From a virus (lineage: Duplodnaviria; Heunggongvirae; Uroviricota; Caudoviricetes), in the IMG/VR virus record IMGVR_UViG_2778261346_000008, positions 1-11,570 of that record: 11,570 bases of DNA. One strand, given 5' to 3'. The translations under genes and the position numbers were made by a program. The notes under the pieces were generated by a model. It was not told where the DNA came from. It searched no databases and was given only the letters and a program-made list of their open reading frames with translations. Shown here piece after piece: positions 2,404 to 6,097 of the stretch (position 1 is the first letter of the stretch; each line of letters begins with the position of its first letter).

Positions 2404-3366
2404 ATGAGCAGCAAGCTTCATGGTCTTGTCTGGGAAGGGTGCGCCTTCACCGGCATGATCTTATCCAGGGTGGCGGTTATGGCCCGTCTTGCAGACTACA
2501 GCAATGACGAGGGCGTGTCATGGCCTGCCATTGAAACTATCCGGCGTCAGATCGGTGCAAGAAGTGAATCCACAGTGAAATCGGCTATTGCAGAACTGGC
2601 GAAAGAGGGCTGGCTGACGAAGGAAGAGCGTAAGGTCGGTGGGCGTAATGTAAGCAATATCTATCGGCTTAATGTGGAAAAACTCGAAGCAGCTGCGGCG
2701 GCGGCGCGTGAGTCATATAAACCGAAAAGAAAAATTAGCCCGGCAAAAAATGACCCGTTAACAGTTGACCCGTCAAATATTGACCCCTCAACGGTTGACC
2801 CGTCAAATTTTGATGGATCAACTGTTGATAAAAAACTGCCGATTAGGGGGCCGATGATTGACCCCGATCCGTCAGTATTAAAACCTGATCCGTCAGATAA
2901 AAGATCTTCTTGTCCGGACGCTTCGCAACCGGACCCGCAGACGGCTGAACAGGATTTTTTAACCCGACACCCTGACGCGGTTGTGTTCAGTGCGAAAAAA
3001 CGCCAGTGGGGAAGTCAGGAAGATTTGGTGTGCGCACAGTGGATCTGGGGACGAATCGTGAGTCTTTACGAGCAGGCGGCCAGCTATGATGGCGAGATCA
3101 CTAGACCGAAAGAACCCAACTGGACAGCATGGGCCAATGACGTTCGCACAATGCGGATGCTGGATGGCAGAACTCACAGACAAATTTGTGAAATGTTTGG
3201 GCGTCTCCAGCGGGATTCGTTCTGGGTAAAAAACATCATGAGTCCGGCAAAACTCCGGGAAAAATGGGATGAACTGGTTATCCGCCTGGGGCGTATGCCT
3301 GCGCAGCGTTGCGTGAATCACATTTCTGAACCGGACACTGAAATTCCGCCGGGCTTCAGGGGGTAA
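2404..3366 (+). CDS. phage replication initiator / replisome organiser (320 aa from ATG 2404)
   Basis: Track ORF starts at GTG 2389; ATG 2404 follows a G-rich RBS. N-terminal winged-HTH-like segment (GVSWPAIETIRRQIGARSESTVKSAIAELAKEGWL), Asp/Pro-rich linker encoded by tandem 15-bp repeats, Trp-rich C-terminal domain. Confidence 0.6.
   Translation: MSSKLHGLVWEGCAFTGMILSRVAVMARLADYSNDEGVSWPAIETIRRQIGARSESTVKSAIAELAKEGWLTKEERKVGGRNVSNIYRLNVEKLEAAAAAARESYKPKRKISPAKNDPLTVDPSNIDPSTVDPSNFDGSTVDKKLPIRGPMIDPDPSVLKPDPSDKRSSCPDASQPDPQTAEQDFLTRHPDAVVFSAKKRQWGSQEDLVCAQWIWGRIVSLYEQAASYDGEITRPKEPNWTAWANDVRTMRMLDGRTHRQICEMFGRLQRDSFWVKNIMSPAKLREKWDELVIRLGRMPAQRCVNHISEPDTEIPPGFRG
2751..2840. repeat. six tandem 15-bp iterons (TGACCCGTCAA-like, each with TTGAC/GTCAA dyad) followed by an A-rich tract; candidate ori
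   Basis: Units begin at 2751, 2766, 2781, 2796, 2811, 2826; related half-repeats TGA(C/T)CCG(A)TCAG at 2858-2875 and 2885-2896. Located inside the initiator gene, as lambda ori lies inside O. Confidence 0.6.
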
Positions 3367-3406: not shown

Positions 3407-3829
3407 GTGGCAAAAGTTTTTACACAAGAAGAGCGGGAAAAAATTAAAGGGCAGGTTGTTGAACTCGTACGCCAGAGTGGGCGCGAGACGTTACGACAAC
3501 TGGAAACTAAAACTGGGGCAACAAGATATCTGATGAGCGTTCTGGCCAGAGAGCTGGTTGCCAGTGGCGATGTATACAACTCTGGTTACGGGTTATTCCC
3601 GTCTGAACAGGCGCGTAAGGACTGGCAAAATGCCCGTAAAAAGCTCTCAAGGGCAAAGCCGAAGAAACCATCTGCGGTTGATCCGGACCTTATCTGGTCA
3701 TTACCAGATGGCGAAATACGCCGCTACGACAGGCGTCTGAACATAATCTGTCTCGAGTGCCGGAAGAGCGAAGTTATGCAGCGCGTACTGGCGTTTTATC
3801 AGGGGAATTTTGAGGAGGTGGTGCGGTGA
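3407..3829 (+). CDS. hypothetical early protein (140 aa)
   Basis: GTG start at 3407 with CAGGAGGG upstream; stop TGA overlaps the next start (GTGA at 3826-3829). Confidence 0.5.
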   Translation: MAKVFTQEEREKIKGQVVELVRQSGRETLRQLETKTGATRYLMSVLARELVASGDVYNSGYGLFPSEQARKDWQNARKKLSRAKPKKPSAVDPDLIWSLPDGEIRRYDRRLNIICLECRKSEVMQRVLAFYQGNFEEVVR

Positions 3830-4080
3830 GTGAATCAAAATGCCAGGTTAATGGCAACAAGATAGAACCATGTGCAGCACTGGCAAAGTCCCTTGAGCAT
3901 GATGCTGAATACACGATGCGAAAAGGTCTGCTGATATACAAAATCTGGAATGAGAGTTTAACTCGCGGTCCTGATTTTGTGATGTTGCGTTCCGGTGAAT
4001 TTTCTAAATTACCAGTTCGGGTTTCATTTTGTCCGTTCTGTGGTGAAAGTCTGAAAACGTGGGAGAACAGAAATGAATGA
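3826..4080 (+). CDS. hypothetical Cys-containing small protein (84 aa; CPFCG motif near C-terminus)
   Basis: GTG 3826 with GAGGAGG upstream; translationally coupled to both neighbours. Confidence 0.5.
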   Translation: MSESKCQVNGNKIEPCAALAKSLEHDAEYTMRKGLLIYKIWNESLTRGPDFVMLRSGEFSKLPVRVSFCPFCGESLKTWENRNE

Positions 4081-4384
4081 AATCAAAGAAATACCAGTAG
4101 TACGTGATGAATATGGCTGCTGGACGCATCCTGAATATGAAAAATTCTGTGACGGTCGGGAATATATTTCAACGGAAGAGTTTAACGCCTGGATGGAGGA
4201 AAATAATCTTCAATACGTCCTCTGCTTCAGAGATGAAGGATGTGCTGACCTTGATGCGTGTGATGCTGATATTTCTGCATGGGAACCGGAACGACCAGAG
4301 GGCAATGGATGGTTTATTGGTTCAATACATGACACCGAAGATGGCCCGGTTTGTGTATGGCTGAGAAATAAGGCCGAAGCATAA
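4073..4384 (+). CDS. hypothetical acidic Cys/Trp-rich protein (103 aa)
   Basis: ATG 4073 with GGAGAA upstream, overlapping the stop of the previous gene; last gene before the base-composition drop. Confidence 0.5.
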   Translation: MNEIKEIPVVRDEYGCWTHPEYEKFCDGREYISTEEFNAWMEENNLQYVLCFRDEGCADLDACDADISAWEPERPEGNGWFIGSIHDTEDGPVCVWLRNKAEA

Positions 4385-4488: not shown

Positions 4489-4506
4489 GCCGCCCGAAAG
4501 GGCGGT
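4489..4506 (+). other. GC stem-loop with GAAA tetraloop abutting the RBS of the next gene
   Basis: GCCGCCC (4489-4495) GAAA (4496-4499) GGGCGGT (4500-4506): 7-bp stem with one G-U; no U-tract follows; 3' arm overlaps GGTGGAG and sits 10 nt before ATG 4517. Confidence 0.45.
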
Positions 4507-4516
4507 GGAGATAATA

Positions 4517-5038
4517 ATGGGAATAACTAAAGAACGATTGTTGGAAATAGCAAACCTTAGTGATTGGGCATTAAGTGATGAGAGAATTGTTTCTCCTCAT
4601 GCTTATGAGTCAGTTACAAGTATAGAAATAACAACAATGGCTAGAATGCTGCTTGGTTATTTCAAAATAGAAAATAAAAAACAGATGGATAGTAATGTTG
4701 ATATATGTGAGATTTTAGACGATTGGGGGGCTTGGGTTGTGGCTGGTAATAGTTCTATTGATTGGCAGGAAATAGCTGATAAATATAAAAATGTTGTTCC
4801 TCATGGTAAAAAATCACGTCGTCAGTGCAGCAATGATGAAGGGCGAATTATTGACATTAGTATCCTTATGTTAGAAAGATATAAGCAACAAGAATATGAG
4901 TTAATTGTTGCTCATTTCGTGATTGGTTTATCTCTTCGTGCTATTGCAAAGCAACAAGGATGTTCAGATGGAACAATTCGTAAAAGATTGCAAAAAGCCT
5001 TAGGTTTTTTGACTGGATATATAGCAATTACCAGTTAA
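4517..5038 (+). CDS. sigma-70 region-4-like HTH protein, putative transcriptional regulator (173 aa from ATG 4517)
   Basis: Track ORF starts at GTG 4505; ATG 4517 has GGTGGAG about 6 nt upstream. C-terminus ELIVAHFVIGLSLRAIAKQQGCSDGTIRKRLQKALGFL resembles ECF-sigma/LuxR region-4 HTH; AT-rich codon usage matches the island. Confidence 0.6.
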   Translation: MGITKERLLEIANLSDWALSDERIVSPHAYESVTSIEITTMARMLLGYFKIENKKQMDSNVDICEILDDWGAWVVAGNSSIDWQEIADKYKNVVPHGKKSRRQCSNDEGRIIDISILMLERYKQQEYELIVAHFVIGLSLRAIAKQQGCSDGTIRKRLQKALGFLTGYIAITS

Positions 5039-5676
5039 GAGTCAGCGGTTTTTTTACCAGTGTAATGGTATAAGGATACTCCCATGTGTCTTACATGATA
5101 TGGAAGCGCTGTTGCTGGATGCTTTGTGATACTCTTAAAGCGGAGGGGAGAGCCTTCCGCTTCAATTTCTGCGTCCGAAACGGTCGTAGAGAAAAATTCT
5201 TTCCATTCATTGAATTTTACTGCTGATTTGTCAGACTTTATATAAATTAGAATTCCTCCATGATCGTCACGTGACGTACCCGTGCCGTAACGTTCGGTTA
5301 GCTGAATCCAGCCATTATGAATAGATTTGGGGCCTCTCCATAATTTTGCTTCACCGATCCATTCGAATTTTCCGAATTGATGTTTAACTAATAAATCAAC
5401 GTGACCGCCATGTTGAGTATCATGTTCAACATCATAAAACCTACCTTTCAGGAAATTTTTGATCGACGCTGTTAGCTCGTCCTCTCCCCACTTAGCATCT
5501 TGATAGAAGTGTTTGTCATTTTCTAAATTCTGAATAGCGTCGTCTAAATCTTCATAGAGTTGCTTTACAAAAATATTTTTGTCTGCAGCTAATTTTCTTT
5601 GAACCATTCCCCTAAATTCAGGATCCATTCTAATTAATGATTGAAGGTCTGCAGTACAGATGTTTACATCACTCAT
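5035..5676 (-). CDS. PD-(D/E)xK nuclease-like protein (213 aa), third gene of island operon
   Basis: ATG at 5676..5674 with GGAGAG 5 nt upstream, overlapping the stop of the upstream gene by 8 bp (ATGAGTGA). Motif E84, hVD94LLV, 14 residues, EWIGE109AK111. Track start at 5739 has no RBS. Confidence 0.55.
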   Translation of the reverse strand: MSDVNICTADLQSLIRMDPEFRGMVQRKLAADKNIFVKQLYEDLDDAIQNLENDKHFYQDAKWGEDELTASIKNFLKGRFYDVEHDTQHGGHVDLLVKHQFGKFEWIGEAKLWRGPKSIHNGWIQLTERYGTGTSRDDHGGILIYIKSDKSAVKFNEWKEFFSTTVSDAEIEAEGSPLRFKSITKHPATALPYHVRHMGVSLYHYTGKKTADS

Positions 5677-6097
5677 GCAGACTCTCCAAAAGACTCGAAG
5701 GAGTAAAGTATGGATAAAGATACTGGCTAAAATTATCAACCAATTCGCCAGTTTCTGGATGGTAAAAACTTCCTGTGTCTAAAGCATAGGAAATAAGATC
5801 ATCTTCAACTGGTATTGGTTCTTCCGTTAAATTATCAATGTATTGAAAATGCATATCCAATAGATGTGCTTTATAGCTAGATAAATAATCAGTTGCTTTT
5901 ATTAGCAGGATATAGTCATCTTTCGTATCAGTTAGATAGGTTAAACCATTGATAAGGGTTTTGTATGTAAAGTGATTGATATTTTTAGCATCTTTACTAA
6001 CCAGAAAAAGAAAAAGATCACGACACACACTGCGAACAGGATCATTAAAATCCTGCTCTATTTGCGTGATAATGTCGTGATATATACTCTTTTTCAT
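5669..6097 (-). CDS. hypothetical acidic protein (142 aa), middle gene of island operon
   Basis: ATG 6097..6095 overlaps the stop of the upstream gene (ATGA); weak own RBS, consistent with translational coupling; no recognisable motif. Confidence 0.6.
   Translation of the reverse strand: MKKSIYHDIITQIEQDFNDPVRSVCRDLFLFLVSKDAKNINHFTYKTLINGLTYLTDTKDDYILLIKATDYLSSYKAHLLDMHFQYIDNLTEEPIPVEDDLISYALDTGSFYHPETGELVDNFSQYLYPYFTPSSLLESLHE

Follow-up and report, generated by a model that had tools for sequence, protein, structure and literature searches.

We analysed a window of 11,570 bases (the whole stretch of DNA that begins above), which is identical to part of a lambdoid prophage of Escherichia coli O145 RM9154-C1 that lies beside tRNA-Ser/mtfA. 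This E. coli prophage is Rac-like. Its replication initiator gene contains an array of tandem repeats followed by a block of GATC-containing boxes. This element, at about 2734–2906, is probably the replication origin of the prophage, located within the linker-coding part of its own initiator gene. Judged from the codons of its homologues, the conserved object is a DNA word, TGA-N4-TCA with its flanks, and not the peptide. The same bases also encode (D/E)-x-S-x-x peptide repeats, and the peptide is free where the spacer of the dyad is free. The coordinates of the features are collected in Table 1.

The initial annotation described six tandem 15-bp units within the coding sequence, each with a TTGAC/GTCAA dyad. 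In codon register, six 15-bp units begin at 2752, 2767, 2782, 2797, 2812 and 2827. They encode DPLTV, DPSNI, DPSTV, DPSNF, DGSTV and DKKLP in this order, which confirms the DPSNI/DPSTV-type peptides that had been read from the repeats. The dyad itself was found in only three units, in the form TTGAC-NN-[G/C]TCAA at 2765, 2780 and 2795. One unit has the symmetric variant TTGAT-GG-ATCAA at 2810, the first unit is degenerate and the sixth retains only a half-site. The A-rich stretch reported after the array is present but consists of merely six A. AAAAAA or a similar run follows the array in many homologues, not in all. The two half-repeats reported after the array were confirmed as two copies of GATCCGTCAG.

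Tandem Repeats Finder detected a period-15 array at 2730/2739–2813, with about 5 copies and 71–73% matches, and a better-matching period-30 array at 2739–2828. The array can alternatively be described as inverted 5-bp half-sites that alternate every 7–8 bp. We compared the occurrence of two words in the window with that in shuffled sequences. The window contains TTGA-N4-TCAA (TTGANNNNTCAA) 4 times, always in the array and at exact 15-bp steps, whereas 0.42 are expected, and none of 200 shuffles reached 4. GAYCCGTCA also occurs 4 times, each time within 2767–2895, compared with 0.14 expected, and again 0 of 200 shuffles reached 4.

DNA-level and peptide-level constraint were compared in a set of homologues. 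The set included 80 loci from one-genome-per-species contigs and seven phage loci, which together with the window gave 86 distinct genes from Enterobacterales (Escherichia, Erwinia, Edwardsiella, Morganella, Providencia, Yersinia, Rahnella, Pantoea and others). Units were picked by the protein pattern [DE]-x-S-x-x alone, and the N-terminal domain (N-domain) of the same genes was used as the control. Nearly all full-length homologues have 3–9 such units at the same position, followed by the box block. A few genes of the most divergent clade have just one or two clear units.

At the invariant residues of the N-domain, synonymous sites are saturated, with a mean codon entropy of 1.5 bits over the 86 genes. 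An invariant Asp in this domain is encoded by GAC in 48 genes and by GAT in 38, and the conserved Ser columns are a mixture of AGC, AGT and TCN. In the units, 323 of 374 serine codons are TCA and 31 are TCG, and TCT and TCC do not occur. For the lysine after the unit serine, AAA was counted 246 times and AAG a single time. TCA is never used for the second unit serine, which is always TCT or TCC. In the dyad spacer, 30 different codons occur, for at least 12 amino acids. In each of the 83 genes tested, TCA made up a larger share in the units (median 1.0) than in the remainder of the gene (median 0.13). Within the clade of the window, the sequence of the DPS units (TTGACCCCTCAA) is the reverse complement of that of the EGS units (TTGAGGGGTCAA). 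Because the repeat codons are frozen at most positions and the spacer codon is free, selection acts on the DNA (TGA-N4-TCA) and not on the peptide.

Clustering of the N-domains gave three clades with differing unit consensuses and flanking bases. The unit consensus is nnTTGAnnCnTCAAnnn in the window's clade, aTcTGAcnCnTCAaAAT in the SfIV/SfII clade and aTcTGAaCctTCAGAnT in the phiP27 clade. More distant initiators with an HTH_36 domain have their own tandem array directly after the winged helix (Table 1), with unrelated sequences and periods of 21–24 bp. Since the unit word differs by N-domain clade and the arrays of the distant relatives differ as well, the arrays look as expected for cognate initiator sites.

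Two further observations were made on these relatives. In 4 of the 5 distant HTH_36 initiators, the array is followed by a shared peptide, (P)RTSHSFEPVNEP or a close variant, which may be the counterpart of the GATC-box block. Gene L17 of the Stx2e phage phiP27 (L009, AJ298298; 1501–2427) is a member of the initiator family, although it is annotated as "hypothetical protein; unknown". The gene carries units of its own (TCTGAACCNTCAGAA) as well as three GATCC(A/G)CAAG boxes, with DnaC-like and helicase genes downstream.

The repeats might instead be a low-complexity peptide linker that was made and homogenised by replication slippage, with no function of the DNA. The region is predicted to be disordered, and copy number does shift by whole units. 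Proteins of 305, 310, 315 and 320 residues occur, the near-identical KpF5 and 733R5 genes have 4 and 7 units, and the 315-residue E. coli variants lack one five-residue unit (DPLTV) at the proximal end of the array. Slippage, however, does not account for synonymous positions that stay fixed from genus to genus while the residue at unit position 2 varies freely, nor for DPS and EGS units that are reverse complements. Third-codon-position identity is 0.84 in the box block compared with 0.45 in the N-domain of the same genes. The distant relatives keep a dyad array despite unrelated encoded peptides such as GGAGAA and PVPPEST. We therefore regard a functionless linker as very unlikely.

The array at 2760–2826 is also a single large imperfect palindrome, with inverted-repeat arms of 33 nucleotides that are 79% complementary. 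As single-stranded DNA, this segment is predicted to form a hairpin of −24.7 and −25.6 kcal/mol on the two strands (z about −4.1 on both). These values would suit an array that acts through DNA secondary structure, as a cruciform or as a single-strand hairpin priming signal. However, any tandem series of palindromic units is bound to be self-complementary, and the array-wide palindrome is probably a by-product of the tandem dyads. In the larger SfIV-type clade, the units are imperfectly palindromic (TCTGA...TCAAA) and are thus expected to fold less well. A role through secondary structure seems hardly credible to us.

The box block follows the array and the A run, and its sequence ...TTTGACCCGTCAGAATCTGGnGGGGATCCGTCAGTAAA...GATCCaTCAGATAAAAAA is the best-conserved DNA of the initiator family. 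The two GATCCGTCAG boxes are 21 bp apart and carry the iteron core in the form xGA-N4-TCA. Among 85 distinct homologues, the first box has GAT in 85/85, CCG in 77/85, TCA in 72/85 (exceptions TTA and CAA) and GTA in 77/85, so that its GATC is always kept. Four GATC sites lie within 2816–2906, compared with one per 313 bp window-wide. The block is common to the three iteron-specificity clades and to genes with at least three types of C-terminal domain (C-domain). The spacing of the boxes is 21 bp here, 18 bp in the Erwinia/Edwardsiella relatives and 24 bp in the SfIV clade, and in one variant precisely one box interval of 21 bp is missing. Because the spacing varies by clade, there is no conserved fixed helical phase for SeqA, and we rejected SeqA phasing of the two GATC boxes.

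The boxes are most likely initiator sites of the origin core that lie beside the opening region, and they are possibly methylation-sensitive. It is conceivable, though we consider it rather doubtful, that the boxes and their surroundings form a distinct, host-interfacing origin core. Such a core would be an opening element that is sensitive to Dam methylation and SeqA or bound by a host factor. It would replace the lambda-type AT-rich tract and be common to a whole family of enterobacterial temperate phages. The GATC boxes are the least explained part of the element.

The element lies next to a junction between modules. Megablast against phages found similarity only from 2866 onward (SfIV-like phages) or from 2899 onward (mEp460 and HannyBb). 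In E. coli variants that share the N-domain and the array, a different C-domain is joined directly behind DKRSSCPD. The initiator of mEp460 (L176, 1002–1967) combines an N-domain of a third type, which has repeats of its own (ATTGGTTCAAAACGACCCAAT and ATCGGGTCAAAATGGCC), with the C-domain of the window. The two are joined at the same point, and nucleotide identity is 86% from window position 2899 on.

Mosaic junctions at or just past the block, together with the sharing of the block among genes with different C-domains, could mean that the block is a recombination linker at a module boundary. It would then be kept similar by frequent homologous exchange and have no role in replication. However, the conserved stretch is only about 45–70 bp long, with diverged sequence on both sides, from Providencia to Escherichia. 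Its core has the same form as the iterons, and the tandem array would be left unexplained. We judge this explanation to be highly improbable.

Constraint on the DNA shows that the word matters and does not show its role. The array could be bound by the initiator, or by another phage or host protein, for autoregulation, copy control or exclusion, with the true origin elsewhere in the prophage. The lack of a strong AT-rich tract beside the array would be in line with this. On the other hand, no second multi-copy tandem array was found anywhere in the 11,570-base window, which makes this the sole one in the 11.6-kb early region. No sigma-70-like promoter that could be regulated, and no terminator, was found within 2404–3366, and no TTGA-N4-TCAA site is present at any promoter in the window. 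The mid-gene linker position and the adjacent module junctions also mirror origins that were mapped experimentally (lambda) or annotated in the sequence record (phi80). A purely regulatory array is thus unlikely, and we continue with the element as a probable origin.

The initiator gene is at the position of gene O in a lambdoid early-right operon, downstream of cro- and cII-like genes. Along its entire length (residues 1–320), its product matches PHROG 391, "replication initiation O-like" (E = 2.7e-114). In Pfam, HTH_36 was matched at residues 25–71 (E = 2.1e-6) and DnaD_N was below threshold. We built an AlphaFold2 model on 29 homologues. The modelled N-domain has helices at residues 3–15, 20–31, 43–50 and 55–67, a beta-hairpin wing at 71–89 and a helix at 91–105. 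Foldseek against the PDB returned generic winged-helix regulators of the MarR/PadR/ArsR type with E of about 6e-3, which is too weak for a family name. A sequence search of the PDB found no solved relative (best E 0.24).

The C-domain is modelled as helices over residues 178–295, with a predicted local distance difference test (pLDDT) score of 75–88. BLASTP aligned it with residues 174–285 of phi80 gp15 (36% identity, E = 9e-26). PHROG 277 and 2357 match residues 155–309 of the initiator. By BLASTP, the N-domain has no similarity to the N-domain of phi80 gp15, which is of the lambda-O type. As the linker between the two domains corresponds to nucleotides 2725–2928, the array, the A6 run and both boxes (2734–2906) lie wholly in linker codons.

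Table 1. Features of the initiator gene and its internal repeats, with arrays of distant relatives (window coordinates, except in the last five rows, which use the coordinates of the respective loci).
Feature	Position	Strand	Sequence or basis
Replication initiator gene, 320 amino acids	2404–3366	+	Open reading frame and translation; equals coding sequence WP_072095986 in NZ_CP031353
N-terminal winged-helix domain, residues 1–105, presumed iteron-binding	2404–2718	+	AlphaFold2, pLDDT 71–87
Disordered interdomain linker, residues 108–175	2725–2928	+	AlphaFold2, pLDDT 32–40
Two degenerate proximal units in the same 15-bp register	2734–2761		TTAGCCCGGCAA (2734–2745), ATGACCCGTTAA (2750–2761)
Four core iterons, 12-bp dyads at exact 15-bp spacing	2765–2821		TTGACCCGTCAA (2765), TTGACCCCTCAA (2780), TTGACCCGTCAA (2795), TTGATGGATCAA (2810)
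Terminal left half-site TTGAT (2825), then A6 run (2830–2835)	2825–2835		Sequence
GATC-box block	2857–2906		ATTGACCCC, GATCCGTCAG (2866–2875), GATCCGTCAG (2887–2896), ATAAAAGATC (GATC at 2903)
Mosaic junction between the module of N-domain and repeats and the C-domain module	2899–2925		Megablast, E. coli variants, mEp460
C-terminal helical domain, phi80 gp15 type, residues 178–296, presumed replisome/helicase recruitment	2935–3291	+	BLASTP, AlphaFold2
Tandem array, Phi24B O (L171)	1538–1601
Tandem array, Salmonella S135 (L172)	1519–1626
Tandem array, Pectobacterium ZF40 (L173)	1522–1620
Tandem array, Vibrio D75 (L174)	1512–1578
Tandem array, Pseudomonas PseuP_224 (L175)	1601–1642

We propose the following course of initiation. 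The winged-helix N-domain would bind the TTGA-N4-TCAA array, which offers four good sites 15 bp apart and the degenerate ones, and binding would build a nucleoprotein complex like the O-some. This complex may strain or open the neighbouring DNA, from the last iteron through the A6 run to the GATC-box block. The GATCCGTCAG boxes, which are iteron-like (xGA-N4-TCA), would most likely serve as invariant origin-core sites by the opening region, possibly under Dam/SeqA control. The C-domain would then recruit the host helicase machinery. Since the prophage has no P-, DnaC- or helicase-type gene after the initiator, this recruitment would take place directly.

The lambda-O-style origin within the initiator, as suggested by the initial annotation, is supported by the position of the gene, the location in the linker, the constraint on the DNA, the clade-specific words and the junctions. 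The likeness to lambda O does not extend to the N-domain, to an unwinding tract or to a P-like loader gene, and these and several other points weigh against an origin here. The N-domain has no match to Pfam Phage_rep_O and, by sequence comparison, is not homologous to lambda O, so that the arrangement is best described as an analogue and not a homologue. No clear AT-rich unwinding tract is evident, and GC content over 40 bp does not fall below 35%. The gene is least stable at the distal end of the array (30-mer 2805–2834, 100-mer 2805–2904), but the z of this 30-mer is only 1.76, and its rank among the 11,540 in the window is 437. Half-site centres about 7 bp apart are, by our reasoning, unusual for a winged-helix dimer. 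PHROG and Pfam searches of the window genes found no P-like, DnaC-like or helicase-type gene downstream of the initiator. The prophage could therefore be replication-defective. Units within an array are non-independent and the genes share ancestry, so the raw codon counts overstate their statistical weight. The contrast with the N-domain, however, is made within the same genes, and shared ancestry is thereby controlled for. Finally, no paper on the origin or the iterons of this initiator family was found among those that could be searched, and the SfIV genome paper is silent on origin and repeats.

In SfIV, which has the same C-domain as the window, a loader gene was also not found directly after the initiator in the stretch examined. 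Initiators of this family may thus act solo with the host DnaB/DnaC.

Several candidate elements were considered and rejected. A lambda-like AT-rich unwinding tract is not convincingly present, given the values above. A perfect DnaA box, TTTTCCACA, is present at 2673–2681 on the minus strand, about 80 bp upstream of the array. It is probably due to chance, because boxes with one mismatch are scattered across the window (41 found compared with 27 expected) and the codons at this place differ in the SfIV clade. An FNR site was rejected by inspection, as the FNR site TTGAT-N4-ATCAA corresponds to TTGA-N6-TCAA whereas the array has TTGA-N4-TCAA. The oriJ of the K-12 Rac prophage is not applicable, since K-12 Rac has a different initiator (YdaU, DUF1376) together with the DnaC-like YdaV. 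A search of the initiator gene against Rfam gave no match.

The gene order in the window is racR (minus strand), ydaS/cro-like, ydaT/cII-like, the initiator, DUF977, small nin-like genes, a frameshifted Q-family antiterminator, an antisense three-gene insert, hokD/sok, DUF968, rusA and a second Q gene. Directly after the initiator, 3407–4384 encodes DUF977 ("Ren-like exclusion protein" in PHROGs) and two small proteins of unassigned function. The gp14 protein of phi80 matches PHROG 109, "P-like helicase loader", whereas no protein of the window does.

The initiator gene is widespread. At a coverage of at least 80%, it was found in 1,514 of 5,426 complete E. coli genomes, and the carriers include ST131, O157, O145 and ATCC 25922. 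Among the strains that carry the prophage are RM9154-C1, EC958, JJ1886 and ATCC 25922. Its relatives fall into 914 protein clusters at E ≤ 1e-5. Homologues from isolated phages include those of SfII, SfIV, phiNP, YeP1, phiP27 and Klebsiella phages. The Prokaryotic Genome Annotation Pipeline (PGAP) labels the protein merely as "helix-turn-helix domain-containing protein".

Other features of the window lie outside the initiator gene. The two Q antiterminator genes belong to different families, Phage_antitermQ and Antiterm (4505–5038 and 9568–10389), and the first is frameshifted according to PGAP in the identical genome record. Directly after it, in the nin/Q region, an AT-rich operon of three genes (365, 142 and 234 amino acids) runs antisense at 5035–7191 on the minus strand. 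Its products have no Pfam match, and PADLOC gave only PDC-S54 at E = 0.002, which we do not count as real. This operon resembles a moron or a candidate defence island. At 7362–7687 there is a type I toxin-antitoxin system, hokD/sok, with an Rfam sok match of 113.7 bits at 7362–7537 and the end of the Hok-like open reading frame at 7687. A full-length match to the small RNA STnc100 (Rfam, 115 bits) was found at 11158–11344.

Recognition of this gene as an initiator with an internal origin would improve the annotation of prophages. It also offers a specific target with which to ask which of the widespread Rac-like prophages are still able to replicate. The element is a clean natural case of dual coding, in which an array of DNA-binding sites is imposed on a disordered linker and the effects of selection on DNA and on peptide can be told apart. 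With the invariant GATC boxes there is a concrete starting point for tests of how an origin is opened and regulated when it has neither an AT-rich tract nor a phage-encoded loader. The boxes are the part of the element most worth an experiment.

An origin within the initiator gene is ordinary in lambda-like phages and is unannotated for this initiator family. We think it likely that the element works like an origin of the lambda/phi80 type, although the AT-rich tract and the P gene, both accessories in the lambda module, are missing. The origins of lambda, P22 and phage L are sets of repeats in the middle of the initiator gene (PMC8022706, PMC7466680). These repeats were read as the origin by experiment in lambda and by sequence in P22 and phage L (PMC7466680, PMC8022706). 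As in lambda, the initiator of the prophage follows cII in the early right operon. Dyad sites lie mid-gene, flanked by an N-terminal part for DNA binding and a C-terminal part for recruitment, and the DNA doubles as coding sequence. The number of iterons also varies among relatives, as it does between lambda, with 4, and Stx phages, with 6 (PMC7466680). In contrast to lambda, which has a Phage_rep_O N-domain and iterons of about 19–20 bp (PMC8022706), the prophage has an HTH_36 N-domain and 12-bp dyads at 15-bp spacing. It lacks a marked AT-rich tract and a P gene, and it has GATC-containing boxes after the array.

Gene 15 of phi80 (GenBank JX871397) shares the homologous C-domain and the same ...AAAAGATCTTC... 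junction into it. It also has four annotated gp15 binding sites inside the gene, which encode the peptide repeat FPKTGK. However, phi80 has a lambda-O-type N-domain (PHROG 277), 21-bp units TTCCCGAAAACGGGAA and the P-like loader gp14. In gene 18 of P22 and gene 18 of phage L, imprecise repeats at the centre of the initiator gene are likewise read as the origin. That of phage L was read from sequence alone, from six 11-bp repeats (PMC8022706), and the same logic is applied here to the prophage array. P22 and phage L differ from the prophage in their initiator N-domains and repeat words, and both pair the initiator with a DnaB-type helicase, gp12.

Another close system is the "replication protein O / primosomal protein" of the SfII/SfIV/SfV type (type B clade of the same family). 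The title of the SfIV genome paper describes SfIV as an isolated phage. The N-domain belongs to the same family (60% identity), a 15-bp-unit array (TCTGACnCnTCAAAA) lies in the same place with the same GATCCGTCAG boxes, and SfIV has the same C-domain too. Compared with the prophage, the dyad flanks are TC...AA instead of TT...AA and the recognition-helix region is one residue shorter.

Pfam and PDB sequence searches detected no homology of the initiator to iteron-plasmid systems. In iteron plasmids (P1 oriR, pPS10, R6K, RK2), a winged-helix initiator similarly binds repeated sites, and P1 oriR has short GATC-containing repeats in its opening region that are under Dam/SeqA control. Unlike the array described here, plasmid iterons are direct repeats of about 17–22 bp in a helical phase of about 22 bp, and they lie outside the rep gene.

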